In this document: positions 9,627 through 15,061 of the stretch, one piece after another
How the letters are laid out: each line of letters opens with the position of its first letter
Position numbering within the stretch: the stretch's first letter is position 1
From: Halostella salina
Lineage (GTDB): Archaea > Halobacteriota > Halobacteria > Halobacteriales > Natronoarchaeaceae
Assembly (NCBI RefSeq): GCF_003675855.1
Contig: NZ_RCIH01000002.1
Span: forward strand, 233,654 to 257,653
Length of the DNA: 24,000 nucleotides
Direction of reading: 5' to 3'
Position numbers and translations under genes: made by a program
Notes under the pieces: generated by a model
The model's input: the letters and a program-made list of their open reading frames with translations, nothing else
Told to the model about the DNA's origin: nothing
Databases searched by the model: none

Positions 9627-11336
9627 GTGCCACTGGAGGCCCCCGCCCGGATCGTCAGCGAACTCACGAGCCGGGGGTACAACGCCGACCGCGAGGCGGT
9701 GACGCTCATCGCTTCCGCGGATGATCCGGCCCGCGCGCTGGAGCGCGTCGTCGAGGCCGCACCGGAGGGTGCGCTCCGACTCTCGGTCGACCACGTCCGC
9801 GCGGTGCTTGACGCCGACGACGCGGCCGGCGACCCCGCGACGATGAGCGAGTCCGCCTCCACCCGAGCGGGTGCGGTCGATGCACCGGCCGACGCCGGTA
9901 GCGACGCTGCCGATGCTGCCACCGCTACCGACGCTGGGGGCGACGCGCCTGACCACGCGGCCACCCCGGATGCCGCGACCACGGCGGACACAGGTGGAGC
10001 GCGTTCGGCCACCGCGGACAGCCAAGACCCCTCTACTTCGACTGCAGACCCGGACGCTTCGACCGATCGATCGTCGAAAAACTCTCCATCTGAAACAACG
10101 GTATCGGCCGACCGGAGCACCGACCAGTCGCTCCGCTCGGTCGACATCGCGAACGACATCACCGGTCGGAGCACGGGGACGGGCGCGTACGAGGACTTCG
10201 TCGCCGTGTTCCGGGACCGCTACGAGCGCCTGGGCGACAAACTCAGATCCAGGGTAAACCACCGCCCGGCGGAGGCGATCCAGTCGATGCCCGGCGGGAG
10301 CGAGGCGTCGATGGTCGGGATGGTCAGCGACATCCGGTCGACGGCCAGCGGCCACTGGCTCGTCGAACTGGAGGACCCGACGGGGACGTTCCCCTGCCTC
10401 GTAATGAAGGACCGCGACATCGCGGCGCTGGTCGAGGAGCTGCTCCACGACGAGATCATCGCCGTCGAGGGATCGCTGGCGGACGACGGCGGGATCCTCT
10501 TCGTCGATGCGATGCACTTCCCGGACGTGCCGCGGACGTACTCGCCGAACACGGCCGACCGCCACGTCCAGGCCGCGCTCATCAGCGACATCCACGTCGG
10601 CAGTCAGGAGTTCATGGCCGACGCGTGGTCGCGCTTCGCCGACTGGCTCCACACGCCCGAGGCCGAGGCCATCGAGTACCTGCTCATCGCGGGGGACATG
10701 GTCGAGGGCGTCGGCGTCTACCCGGACCAGGACGAGGAACTCGACATCGTCGACATCTACGACCAGTACCGGCAGTTCTCGGAACACCTGAAGGAGGTGC
10801 CCGGCGACATCGAGATCGTGATGATCCCCGGGAACCACGACGCCGTCCGCCTCGCCGAACCCCAGCCGGCGTTCGACGAGGAACTGCGGAACATCATGTC
10901 GGCGCACGACGCCCGGATCACGGGCAACCCCTCGACCGTCACGCTGGAGGGCGTCTCGATCCTCATGTACCACGGCGTCTCGCTGGACGAGGTGATCGCC
11001 GAACTTCCGGAGGAGAAGGCCAGCTACGACGACCCCCAGAAAGCGATGCACCACCTCCTGAAGAAGCGCCACGTCGCCCCGCAGTACGGCGGCCACCTCC
11101 GCCTCGCGCCCGAGGAGAAGGATTACCTCACCATCGACGAGGTGCCGGACATCTTCCACACCGGCCACGTCCACAAACTCGGCGTCGGCAAGTACCACAA
11201 CGTCCTCTCGATCAATTCGGGCTGCTGGCAGGAACAGACCGCCTTCCAGCAGTCGGTCAACATCGACCCCGACGCCGGGTTCGCGCCGGTCGTCGACCTC
11301 GACACGCTGGAGCCGACGATCCGTAAGTTCCACTAA
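9627..11336 (+). CDS. polD1: DNA polymerase II (PolD) small subunit DP1
   Basis: Calcineurin-type phosphoesterase motifs 'ISDIHVGS', 'AGDMVEG', 'PGNHD' and 'TGHVH'. The N-terminal 'MPLEAPARIVSELTSRGYNADREAV' looks like the haloarchaeal DP1 N-terminal domain. GTG start. A D/A/T-rich low-complexity insert spans roughly aa 70-170. Confidence 0.93.
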   Translation: MPLEAPARIVSELTSRGYNADREAVTLIASADDPARALERVVEAAPEGALRLSVDHVRAVLDADDAAGDPATMSESASTRAGAVDAPADAGSDAADAATATDAGGDAPDHAATPDAATTADTGGARSATADSQDPSTSTADPDASTDRSSKNSPSETTVSADRSTDQSLRSVDIANDITGRSTGTGAYEDFVAVFRDRYERLGDKLRSRVNHRPAEAIQSMPGGSEASMVGMVSDIRSTASGHWLVELEDPTGTFPCLVMKDRDIAALVEELLHDEIIAVEGSLADDGGILFVDAMHFPDVPRTYSPNTADRHVQAALISDIHVGSQEFMADAWSRFADWLHTPEAEAIEYLLIAGDMVEGVGVYPDQDEELDIVDIYDQYRQFSEHLKEVPGDIEIVMIPGNHDAVRLAEPQPAFDEELRNIMSAHDARITGNPSTVTLEGVSILMYHGVSLDEVIAELPEEKASYDDPQKAMHHLLKKRHVAPQYGGHLRLAPEEKDYLTIDEVPDIFHTGHVHKLGVGKYHNVLSINSGCWQEQTAFQQSVNIDPDAGFAPVVDLDTLEPTIRKFH

Positions 11337-11552
11337 GAAAGCCCTTGCTCGGCCTTGGCAGGCCTCGCTGCGCCCTTTCAATGTCCGCCGCCAGAATCGC
11401 TGCGCGATTCTCGCTAAGGCCCGCCAGTTTGCGCGAGCGCCAGCGGTCGCTGGCGCACGCTTCGAGTGCCTGCCCTTCCCCGTCCGCTGGCGGCGCTCGA
11501 CGCGGTCTCGCGCACGCCAGCGCGGCCGGAAGGCTGTGTCGATGCTGTCACG
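11337..11552 (+). repeat. copy A of a roughly 215-nt structured intergenic element
   Basis: nt 11337-11440 are identical to 14522-14625 (104/104). Similarity continues to about 11552/14736. Contains hairpins at 11393-11411, 11437-11456 and 11485-11522. Confidence 0.85.
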
Positions 11553-11578: not shown

Positions 11579-12004
11579 CTACGGCTCCATCCGGTACTTC
11601 ACGGTCGGCGTGCCGTCGAACCGCGGTCCGGGACCGGCCTCGGCGAAGCCGACGCTCTCGGCCGCGTCGGCGACGTGGGGAACGGAGTCCGGCGCGATCA
11701 GTTCGACCGGCATCCCCTCGCGCTCGGCGAAGCGGACCGGTTCGCCGAGCAACTGCTCGCAGGCGTCCGCGGTCCCATCGACCTGCGTCACGTGGACGCA
11801 GTTCTCGCGCGCATCGAAGCTGACGAAGCCCAGCAGGCCCGGGTCCTGCTCCTCGGCGTCCGCGTTCGGGTCCGTCTCTTCCTCCTCGGACTCGGCGACG
11901 CGGACCGTCCGGTCGTGGACTAGGTTGCGCATCACGTCCGTCGGGGCGTCGGCGATCGCGGCCATGTCGCCGGCGTCCGCCTCAACGGCGTCCCGTATCC
12001 TCAT
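11579..12004 (-). CDS. GNAT family N-acetyltransferase
   Basis: About 141 aa and acidic, with a C-terminal 'AESVGFAEAG' matching the acetyl-CoA-binding end of GNATs. ATG at 12002-12004 lies about 29 nt downstream of the TATA-like 'atttat' (minus strand, 12031-12036). The GTG at 12022 is the less likely start. Confidence 0.75.
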   Translation of the reverse strand: MRIRDAVEADAGDMAAIADAPTDVMRNLVHDRTVRVAESEEEETDPNADAEEQDPGLLGFVSFDARENCVHVTQVDGTADACEQLLGEPVRFAEREGMPVELIAPDSVPHVADAAESVGFAEAGPGPRFDGTPTVKYRMEP

Positions 12005-12100
12005 CGTGTCCACGGTAGTCACCCACGCACATAAATCCGCGGCGTGCGTGGGATGATCACAAGCGTCACACTTTCAATCTCGGGGGCGCTACGTCGACCC

Positions 12101-13341: not shown

Positions 13342-14520
13342 ATGCGAGTAGTCGCCAAGTTCGGGGGGACCAGCCTTGGGAGCGGCGAGCGCGTCGACCG
13401 CGCCGCCGACTCCATCGCCACCGCCGTCGAGGAGGGCCACGAGATCGCCGTCGTCGCCAGCGCCATGGGGTCGACGACGGACGAACTGCTCGACGAGATC
13501 ACCTTCGAGACGGAGGACGAGGACCGCGCCCAGATCGTCAGCATGGGCGAGCGCACCAGCGTCCGCATGCTCAAGGCCGCCCTCGCAGCCCGCGGGATCG
13601 ATGCGATCTTCCTCGAACCGGGCAGCGAACAGTGGCCGGTCATCACCGACGCCGCCGGCGAGGTCGACGTCGAAGAGACCAAGCGCCGCGCCGGCGAACT
13701 CGCGGCCCAGCTCGACGGCGTCGTCCCCGTGATCACCGGCTTCCTCGCCGAGGACGGCGACGGCAACGTCACCACGCTCGGCCGCGGTGGAAGCGACACC
13801 ACTGCCGTCATGCTCGGCCGCTACATGGACGCCGACGAGGTCGTCATCGTCACCGACGTCGAGGGCGTCATGACCGGCGACCCCCGCGTCGTCGAGGGCG
13901 CGCGCAACGTCGGCGAGATCACCGTCGACGAACTGCGCAACCTCTCGTTCCGTGGCGCGGAAGTGGTCGCGCCCAGCGCCCTCTCGTACAAGGCCGGCAA
14001 CATGAGCGTCCGCGTCGTCCACTACCAGCACGGCGACCTGCTCACCGGCGGCACCCGGATCGAGGGCGAGTTCCGGAGCCTCGTCGACATGCGCGAGGGA
14101 TCGCTGGCCTGCATCACCGTCGCGGGCCGCGCCATCCGCAACAGCCCCGGCATCCTGCGTGACCTGACGACCGCGCTCGGCGACGCCGAGGTCAACGTCG
14201 ACGCTATCGCCAGCGGGATGGACTCCGTGACGTTCTACGTCGACGAGTCCGAGTCCGAGGCCGCCGAAACGGTGCTCCACCGCGAGGTCGTCGACCAGGA
14301 ACCGCTCTCCAGCGTCACCGTCGAGGAGGGGCTGGCCGTCATCCGCGTCACCGGCGGCGAACTGCCGAACCGGCCCGGCGTGATGCAGGAGATCGTCCAG
14401 CCGATGGCCGCGGCCGGCATCAACATCCACGACCTCATCACCAGCGCCACCTCCGTCGCCGCCTTCGTCGACTGGGACGACCGCGAGCAGGCGCTGGAGA
14501 TCATGCAGAACCGCTTCTAG
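13342..14520 (+). CDS. lysC: aspartate kinase
   Basis: N-terminal 'KFGGTSLG', amino-acid-kinase fold motifs, and C-terminal tandem ACT-like regions. 392 aa. Confidence 0.92.
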   Translation: MRVVAKFGGTSLGSGERVDRAADSIATAVEEGHEIAVVASAMGSTTDELLDEITFETEDEDRAQIVSMGERTSVRMLKAALAARGIDAIFLEPGSEQWPVITDAAGEVDVEETKRRAGELAAQLDGVVPVITGFLAEDGDGNVTTLGRGGSDTTAVMLGRYMDADEVVIVTDVEGVMTGDPRVVEGARNVGEITVDELRNLSFRGAEVVAPSALSYKAGNMSVRVVHYQHGDLLTGGTRIEGEFRSLVDMREGSLACITVAGRAIRNSPGILRDLTTALGDAEVNVDAIASGMDSVTFYVDESESEAAETVLHREVVDQEPLSSVTVEEGLAVIRVTGGELPNRPGVMQEIVQPMAAAGINIHDLITSATSVAAFVDWDDREQALEIMQNRF

Positions 14521-14521
14521 G

Positions 14522-14736
14522 GAAAGCCCTTGCTCGGCCTTGGCAGGCCTCGCTGCGCCCTTTCAATGTCCGCCGCCAGAATCGCTGCGCGATTCTCGCT
14601 AAGGCCCGCCAGTTTGCGCGAGCGCTGACGGTCGTCAGCGCACGCTTCGAGTGCCTGCCCTCCCCCGTCCGCTGGCGGGGCTCACTACCGTTCGCCCACG
14701 CCAGCGTGGCCGGTGGGGGACATCAAACCTGTCACG
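14522..14736 (+). repeat. copy B of the roughly 215-nt structured intergenic element
   Basis: See copy A. Hairpins are at 14578-14596, 14622-14641 and 14670-14706, and the last two carry compensatory substitutions relative to copy A. Confidence 0.85.
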
Positions 14737-14866
14737 GATCCCGCATCCGGTGGTCGGATCGATCCGGTTCGGAGACTCTCTCTCGCTGGACGATCGCCGA
14801 GTCGACCGCCGTGGTACCGCGACCCTCGGAACTGTTATACGTAAACCCGGCGTACAATTGATTGCA

Positions 14867-15061
14867 ATGGCAAACGGAACTGTTGATTTCTTCAACAACA
14901 CTGGCGGCTACGGTTTCATTTCCACCGAGGACGCGGACGACGACGTTTTCTTCCACATGGAGGACGTTGGCGGTGCGGACCTCGAAGAAGGACAGGACAT
15001 CGAGTTCGACATCGAGCAGGCCCCCAAGGGTCCGCGCGCGACGAACGTCGTTCGCAACTGA
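14867..15061 (+). CDS. csp: cold-shock domain protein
   Basis: 64 aa. 'GTVDFFNNTGGYGFI' contains the RNP-1-like motif and 'VFFHMEDV' the RNP-2-like motif. ATG start. TATA-like 'gttatac' lies about 33 nt upstream. Confidence 0.93.
   Translation: MANGTVDFFNNTGGYGFISTEDADDDVFFHMEDVGGADLEEGQDIEFDIEQAPKGPRATNVVRN

Follow-up and report, generated by a model that had tools for sequence, protein, structure and literature searches.

The window analysed here, a 24,000-nt stretch of Halostella salina DNA, lies on contig C10 of a genome (G000) of ~3.7 Mb and 65–69% GC. It carries two copies, A and B, of a ~200-nt non-coding element, each in the same orientation as its upstream gene and each opening at that gene's stop codon. 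The sequence-only reading had described a two-copy element; both copies are real, but they belong to a superfamily that extends across the class Halobacteria and that is probably an integral module of gene ends, not an ordinary jumping element. The genes and copies concerned are:

9627 to 11336, plus strand: polD-small, the gene for the DNA polymerase D small subunit (open reading frame list; Pfam DNA_pol_E_B and Metallophos)
11337 to 11540, plus strand: copy A, a type I element of 204 nt with the same layout as copy B (repeat detection, alignment and anchor dissection)
13342 to 14520, plus strand: lysC, the gene for aspartate kinase (Pfam AA_kinase and ACT, with domains up to residue 389 of 392)
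14522 to 14724, plus strand: copy B (extent from anchor dissection)

The polD-small stop codon is TAA (11334–11336), and GAAAGCCC opens copy A at the very next base, 11337. The lysC stop codon is TAG (14518–14520); a single G follows at 14521, and GAAAGCCC opens copy B at 14522. Direct reading of the sequence thus confirms the earlier claim that both copies start 1–2 nt after a stop codon and follow the orientation of the upstream gene. The claim that neither gene has an oligo-T before the element also holds, as the gap between stop and element leaves no room for a T-tract. Copies A and B share 95% identity over 162 nt and can be aligned to ~203–204 nt, and the few differences within one of their hairpins are compensatory (CCAGC...GCUGG versus CUGAC...GUCAG). 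The parts of copy B, with the corresponding landmarks of copy A, all on the plus strand and from anchor dissection unless stated otherwise, are:

14522 to 14564: 5′ module P1, whose lower helix pairs GAAAG (14522–14526) with CUUUC (14560–14564)
14532 to 14553: hairpin HP1, inside P1 beside a C-rich internal loop, with the conserved loop UGGC (14541–14544)
14565 to 14653: middle part, the linker to the C-rich motif
14565 to 14571: conserved linker AAUGUCC
14576 to 14598: variable hairpin HP2, represented by three unrelated sequence types in the alignment
14599 to 14622: conserved stretch with GCYAG
14618 to 14645: hairpin HP3, loop GGUC (also from covariation counts)
14654 to 14667: C-rich motif CCUGCCCUCCCCCG, the superfamily signature, predicted to be mostly single-stranded
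14668 to 14707: hairpin HP4 (also from the predicted fold)
14708 to 14724: GGCC (14708–14711) and then a short tail to 14724, the same layout as in all copies
11469 to 11482: C-rich motif of copy A
11524 to 11527: GGCC of copy A

BLAST and motif scans identified 11 type I copies in G000, A and B included, within a superfamily of at least 29 copies that have in common a 3′ part made up of CCUGCCCUYCCCCG, a hairpin and then GGCC. The C-rich 14-mer has 31 matches in the genome, of which 29 are elements and two are chance occurrences inside genes; 29 is a lower bound, as further type II 5′ hairpins occur without the exact 14-mer. The elements are ~150–350 nt long and, apart from the A/B pair, identities are 73–90%. 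All type I copies run in the order GAAAG/CUUUC helix with HP1, AAUGUCC, HP2, conserved stretch, HP3, C-rich motif, HP4 and GGCC. About 15 of the 29 copies are of type II, which combines the same 3′ part with another 5′ half: a long hairpin with arms opening ...CGAMC-UUUUU and closing AAAAA-...GUCG, then an A-rich linker, two hairpins and GUAUGCU. The 5′ hairpin of the superfamily therefore comes in two interchangeable types, and chimeras in which a type II hairpin is fused to a type I linker are present.

Gene calls from our own GC3-based open reading frame (ORF) sets place 23 of the 29 G000 copies 0–5 nt (mostly ≤ 3) past the stop codon of a co-oriented gene, or in 1-nt overlap with it; two more, atypical in their 5′ part, also stand behind a co-oriented stop. 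Under a generous random-placement null, this degree of anchoring has P about 7.5e-33, and the co-orientation of 25 of 29 copies has P = 5e-5. The 23 anchored hosts end in TAA (15), TAG (5) or TGA (3), as against 15% TAA, 29% TAG and 56% TGA in the high-confidence ORF set of the genome (TAA excess at elements, P = 7e-8). The 5′ flanks have only a stop codon in common (TAA, TAG or TGA, with a 0–3-nt purine spacer or an overlap), and orphan copies are preceded by ACA, CGA or GCA. The four other species of the genus have 18 of 20 copies anchored, from 2 nt past the stop to a 2-nt overlap, and their stop codons often overlap the element itself (cU|GAAAG, UA|GAAAG, UA|AAAAG). Thus, rather than being placed at random with respect to genes and strand, which is what the sequence-only reading had named as its refutation, copies were stop-anchored in G000 (23/29), in its relatives (18/20) and, by inspection, in other families (~24 of 30 sampled loci directly behind a stop, mostly type II; the counts for other families are based on 30–35 sampled loci).

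Comparison of orthologues showed that spacing to the stop stays between a 2-nt overlap and a 1-nt gap while the junction sequence itself changes; behind polD-small, for example, the junction reads TAA+GAAAG, TGAAAG or TGA+GAAAG depending on the species. That the junction mutates and the spacing is nonetheless kept speaks for selection acting on position. How a ~200-nt element comes to be kept, or placed, no more than three bases from stop codons across numerous independent loci and lineages is a puzzle in its own right.

The anchored hosts in G000 include lysC, PolD-small, TrmB, Lrp/AsnC, GDH, PhoU-type, F420-type oxidoreductase, SRP54, thermosome, PspAB, RadA, MCP transducer, Pyr_redox_2, PAPS-reductase-like, FttA/aCPSF1 and TFB genes. 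Most are housekeeping genes (SRP54, thermosome, RadA, TFB, FttA, GDH), and because their Pfam domains mostly extend to the C-terminus, the proteins are not truncated. The elements stand at the ends of transcription units: the next gene is either convergent or in tandem with room for a promoter.

By BLAST, type I elements are confined to the genus. The C-rich 14-mer, however, turned up in 152 of the 401 Halobacteria genomes sampled, the reversed-pattern control being near zero. By family, the carriers are f1 (6/6 genomes), f12 (79/98), f2 (48/85), f18 (5/7), f7 (4/11), f6 (7/155), f15 (1/22) and f17 (1/8). Elements number 3–30 copies per genome, and the unpaired motifs UGGC, GGUC, AAUGUCC and the C-rich 14-mer are conserved across families. 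A contig pattern scan returned many bacterial matches that are due to chance, and we used only its haloarchaeal rows; named carriers among the matches listed are Halapricum, Haloarchaeobius amylolyticus, Natronococcus jeotgali and Halalkalicoccus paucihalophilus. Loci of congener G004 are identical to Halostella pelagica CP040678 records. Only a tRNA matched in an Rfam 15 gathering search of the window, permissive Rfam searches of copies A and B and eight further loci gave chance-level matches only, and searching the literature by topic and by motif letters we found no description of the element, the nearest kind being that in the paper on palindrome-associated transposable elements (PATEs; PMC3119063). 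The ~200-nt blocks apparently constitute one large, class-wide haloarchaeal family that has so far gone undescribed, and haloarchaeal genome annotators should treat them as one family whichever of the readings below is favoured.

Particular genes are linked to the element across families. The fttA gene, which encodes the archaeal transcription termination factor FttA/aCPSF1 (C12:171376-173445 in G000, orthologue loci L057, L074 and L340-L344), carries an element in Halostella G000, G002 and G004 and, as identified by Pfam KH_TffA and Beta-Casp, in Haloarchaeobius and Natronococcus; an element was also seen in G020 (f12), behind a gene recognized as fttA by sequence similarity only. Among five further motif-bearing genomes from three families, four have an element at fttA (G112 of f12, G179 of f18, G367 and G062 of f2), and in all five motif-less genomes examined fttA lacks one. 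The gene is thus among the most consistent element carriers across families, which may be a sign of feedback on the gene's own 3′ end. PolD-small carries an element in both f1 and f2 (Pfam), and an NpdG-like gene, the gene for a 144-aa protein and others, recognized by C-terminal sequence only, recur as hosts across families.

Covariation was scored on 20 type I copies for HP1, HP3 and the lower helix; HP2 and the closing helix fall outside single-structure scoring, as the three HP2 types align in different registers. Paired cells amounted to 92.6%, versus 79.4% in shuffled and 31–47% in slid controls, and 80 cells were changed on both sides, versus 25.9. Fifteen of 30 pairs were altered on both sides, among them 8/10 in HP1 and 6/11 in HP3, where 97% of cells were paired, and the outer P1 pair was G-C in 15 copies, A-U in three and G-U in two. 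The helices are supported by these compensatory changes. In fold predictions the C-rich motif had a mean unpaired probability of 0.65, versus 0.36 overall.

Given this anatomy, anchoring, covariation, class-wide spread and gene linkage, we favour, at a probability of roughly 45%, the reading that the element is a co-transcribed 3′-end module, a putative terminator or stabilizer of the upstream transcription unit. We know of no DNA-level process that senses the stop codon of a reading frame; the constant orientation relative to the gene, the maintained spacing and the deep linkage to particular genes therefore suggest a role at the mRNA 3′ end, a DNA process being blind to the reading frame. 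The element would be transcribed as the immediate 3′ untranslated region (3′-UTR), with the first helix base beginning where ribosome cover ends. Its function would be to terminate and insulate transcription while providing the mRNA with a structured 3′ end, and a factor would bind the conserved single-stranded C-rich motif. Selection on shape and position would maintain the family, which would be reshuffled by recombination between copies and not moved by a recognizable transposase. The definition of mRNA 3′ ends in GC-rich haloarchaea is poorly understood, and the element is a testable candidate for a 3′-end signal or mRNA-stability device on core genes (FttA, PolD, SRP54, TFB, RadA, thermosome).

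The terminator part of this reading draws on type II 5′ modules, which carry T5C on the sense strand 4–10 nt past the stop, with T5 tracts on the complementary strand. In Haloferax volcanii, T5C terminates 95% of transcripts (Term-seq, PMC7237163). In G000, T5 occurs within 20 nt of the stop in 2.8% of genes and within 50 nt in about 5%, and nearly half of the genes with T5 ≤ 15 nt past the stop are those with type II modules; in some other families, too, the 5′ module supplies ready-made T5C terminators. Type II elements thus share both the T5C and the location at unit ends with the known T-stretch terminators (PMC7237163). Those, however, consist of a few bases and need no hairpin, while the element adds a long covarying hairpin, at least two more hairpins and the C-rich motif; type I copies, A and B among them, differ further in having U3–5 only. 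Side by side with this we note T6–T7 tracts 40–70 nt beyond the GGCC of the G000 copies at C4:423, C10:515391, C10:312787 and C10:209406, which could be real terminators for transcripts running through the element.

Several observations weigh against a 3′-end module. Four copies, all intact, stand in divergent promoter regions and have no upstream gene, and two of these are conserved in G002. The only T run of type I follows HP1 and has 3–5 residues (TTT in A and B); conversely, if T5C termination in type II is efficient, transcription from the upstream gene would seldom reach most of the element. A plain terminator needs neither ~200 nt nor exact contact with the stop codon. The helices of the type I alignment are almost purely Watson–Crick, with no excess of G-U pairs (G-U 4 versus A.C 3), and UNCG/GNRA loops are not enriched, with one on the plus strand and two on the minus strand among 106 hairpins. 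Stems are frequently flipped from GC to CG, hairpins are nested within hairpins, and HP2 of copy A has the same stem as its G002 orthologue with the 3-nt loop inverted (UGC versus GCA), as expected from the flip of a DNA palindrome. Such Watson–Crick stems, flips, loop inversion and nesting fit DNA palindromes at least as well as structured RNA, and the covariation may partly stem from palindrome self-correction, not selection. The sole hint of plus-strand RNA is a candidate pairing of the HP1 loop UGGC with GCYA (G-C 10, G-U 9).

The strongest rival, and a serious one, builds on these palindromes. It holds that the element is selfish, non-autonomous DNA of the PATE/REP kind, moved in trans as hairpin-ended single strands with an insertion preference at stop codons, its hairpins being structures recognized at the DNA level, their perfection upheld through template switching within palindromes. 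We consider this somewhat unlikely; were it true, the element would be mobile DNA able to sense where reading frames end, for which there is no precedent. The turnover of copies supports it. The element is multi-copy and mosaic, its presence varies between congeners, and orthologous copies differ by entire hairpin modules. At fttA, the 5′ half is of type II in G000 and of type I in G002 and G004, with the breakpoint at the stop codon, while the 3′ domain and a downstream GGTNACC array are common to all three genomes. The G000 fttA 5′ half is nearest (~90% by visual estimate) to that of a copy 42 kb off on the same contig, behind a putative TFS gene (named from its C-terminal sequence). Copies A and B, too, have an HP1 and HP2 in common that their G002 orthologues lack, which points to conversion between these copies 3 kb apart. 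However, identities of 73–90% outside the A/B pair do not form the near-identical set of a recent burst, and intact copies persist behind the same genes across families with their stop spacing held. The sequence-only reading had proposed a search for empty sites in orthologous regions. Presence does vary among congeners, but no clean empty site emerged: the three G000 candidates consist of rearranged DNA or of a decayed 3′ remnant, with no exact insertion boundary or target duplication readable.

The ends of the element bear on the same question. The 5′ end GAAAGCCC is not complementary to the 3′ GGCC and tail, so terminal inverted repeats are absent, and the sole GAAAG/CUUUC pairing lies inside the 5′ module. 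No triplet or longer sequence is repeated at the two ends of type I copies, and a TNA duplication around the type II 5′ hairpin was not supported, as the triplets after the hairpin are heterogeneous and show no consistent repeat. The earlier argument that the element is no classical miniature inverted-repeat transposable element, having neither terminal inverted repeats nor a target duplication, was accordingly upheld on inspection of both types. Both traits are equally absent from PATEs, haloarchaeal elements derived from IS200/IS605, which resemble the element also in their near-terminal palindromes, sequence heterogeneity and small nested repeats (PMC3119063). PATEs nevertheless insert 3′ of a fixed 4–6-nt target, turn over between strains, and have ends that resemble each other and match IS605-type transposon ends (PMC3119063). 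No fixed target of 4–6 nt was found 5′ of the element, a stop codon being all that the flanks share; its two end hairpins, HP1 and HP4, are unlike each other; no parent IS was seen; and its loci are kept across families.

Y1 transposases (PF01797), which would suit the selfish reading, number three in G000 and one in G001, but a profile search of the five congeners did not find them in G002, G003 (89% complete) or G004, despite 22–24 motif copies in G002 and G004 and 15 BLAST hits in G003. The IS200-type Y1 matches of G000 lie at C9:4362-4721, C3:48598-48945 and C10:45628-45873; two have an internal TAG and none is beside an element copy. More generally, no transposase gene lies next to any of the 29 copies. 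Viral contigs held no true copies among the 120 matches listed, the 15-mer giving chance matches in GC-rich phage genes.

REP/BIME repeats (and those of the ERIC/BOX type) are, like the element, dispersed non-coding modular hairpin repeats with mosaic modules in 3′ intergenic regions; REP/BIME are co-transcribed with the genes upstream of them and are known to act, among other roles, in mRNA 3′ stabilization and termination. REPs, however, are single palindromes of ~35 nt, present in hundreds of copies, linked to RAYT transposases and in no systematic contact with stop codons, whereas the element is archaeal, has ~200 nt, at least four hairpins and conserved unpaired motifs, and numbers 3–30 copies per genome. 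Nor did we meet the short palindromes (~20–40 nt) in alternating clusters that are typical of REP/BIME: the G000 unit is ~200 nt in ~30 copies that always share the orientation of the upstream gene, and tandem or alternating clusters are absent except for two tail-to-tail copies behind convergent genes in G004.

Some type I copies contain extra ~50-nt hairpin units nested in HP1, HP2 or HP3. The nested unit consists of a variable hairpin and GAGCCUYCGCUCACUYCGUUCRCGRAGAC, always in one orientation and at different sites in different copies (L004, L006, L009 and L011, which are G000 copies c3, c7, c10 and c8, as well as L120 and L034). It resembles a small repeat nesting into hairpins and, to the selfish reading, recalls the SMR-A insertions in PATE palindromes (PMC3119063). 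In sum of both sides, deep conservation at the same genes across families and kept spacing favour a selected gene-end module, and the Watson–Crick stems lacking a G-U bias, the inverted loop and the nested insertions mean that a DNA-level repeat is still a contender. The three alternatives of the sequence-only reading (3′-UTR RNA, stop-seeking mobile element, protein-binding module) are thereby narrowed, though not settled.

A bolder form of the gene-end module, which we think unlikely, is that the ribosome reads it: the device would couple translation termination to 3′-end formation or decay through binding of FttA/aCPSF1 to the conserved, single-stranded pyrimidine-rich stretch. The first helix at the stop codon would be opened and re-closed by each termination event, and carriage of the element by fttA in at least four haloarchaeal families would constitute an autoregulatory loop. 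A corollary would be that a stop-sensing mechanism of a new kind installs copies at stop codons.

We regard as still more doubtful an RNA with its own function that depends on upstream genes for transcription, such as a 3′-UTR-derived small RNA or protein sponge; its exposed C-rich motif would bind a protein or pair with G-rich targets such as GGAGG-like ribosome-binding sites, and stop contact would reflect mere compaction. The C-rich 14-mer is indeed the most conserved part of the element as well as predicted to be unpaired, the candidate UGGC/GCYA pairing fits a plus-strand RNA, and orphan copies c3, c6 and c11, which have no gene upstream, are intact, c3 having an ATTAAA box that ends 17 nt upstream of the element start. 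It also helps that no promoter signal was found for the opposite strand: a small RNA gene there, ending at the T5 tracts, was rejected for want of a position-specific AT-rich promoter signal beyond GGCC. However, ~30 divergent paralogues per genome with the same seed and hypervariable stems are unusual for trans-acting RNAs, the G-U pairs and RNA-type tetraloops expected of one are not enriched, and hitch-hiking alone does not explain exact stop contact kept among orthologues. Two other kinds of product were also set aside. A read-through peptide or small ORF from a conserved AUG fails because the frame is shifted by the spacing to the stop and by hairpin length, and because not every copy has the AUG. 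Inspection by eye alone showed no defining boxes for H/ACA-like, C/D-box, bulge-helix-bulge, tRNA-like or group II readings.

Very improbable, finally, is a DNA-level site for a protein or recombinase, such as an attC-like folded single strand or a chromosome-organizing site whose orientation follows the gene: integron attC sites do lie directly behind cassette ORFs in fixed orientation, often touching the stop, and conserve structure over sequence, and the GGTNACC arrays (~11-nt spacing) behind several copies resemble protein-binding sites, but attC is a single imperfect palindrome with R/L cores, occurring in arrays of cassettes adjacent to an integrase, while the element has at least four hairpins behind dispersed core genes and no attC-like R/L cores by eye (no integrase search was made), and here too a DNA-level process would have to sense stop codons in a way not known.

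The surroundings of the two copies in the window can be described briefly. Behind copy A lies a 147-aa ORF (11579–12022, minus strand), convergent on polD-small and ending ~40 nt past the copy, for which a Pfam search gave no match. The sequence-only reading had assigned its observations to 14518–14866; this range does contain copy B, but ~140 nt of it, with a partial GGTNACC-like stretch and the csp promoter, lie outside the repeat. The csp gene has its own TATA-like box, TTATA, at 14835–14839 and its ATG at 14867. The two features downstream of copy B are:

14745 to 14772, plus strand: partial GGTNACC-like stretch, of uncertain membership in the element (cluster scan)
14867 to 15061, plus strand: csp, a cold-shock protein gene neighbouring the element and outside it (Pfam CSD, E = 8.8e-20)

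Elsewhere in G000, GGTNACC or GGTTnnAACC palindromes form arrays of 3–5 units at ~11-nt spacing, and six of nine such genomic clusters are 237–386 nt downstream of an element start. Arrays occur at C9:155990-156023, C9:503548-503596, C12:10906-10954, C12:171023-171059, C12:241915-241948 and C15:4249-4285, with the stretch at 14745–14772 of the window as a weak form. They resemble sites bound by a dimeric protein, or else an optional 3′ module.

Reduced forms of the element were also seen. Two short relatives, at C10:474026(+) and C10:197792(-), consist only of GAAAGCCCUCG, a long hairpin and CGCCCUUUCAGUCCGCCAGG, and neither is behind a stop codon. Solo hairpins of 47–75 nt, with arms like TCGACCTTTT...AAAAGGTCGA, stand directly after TGA stop codons without the rest of the element (G000 C11(-) 384641, a reverse-strand scan position, plus small palindromes on C10(+) and C9(+)); they may be a minimal type II 5′ module or a separate family.

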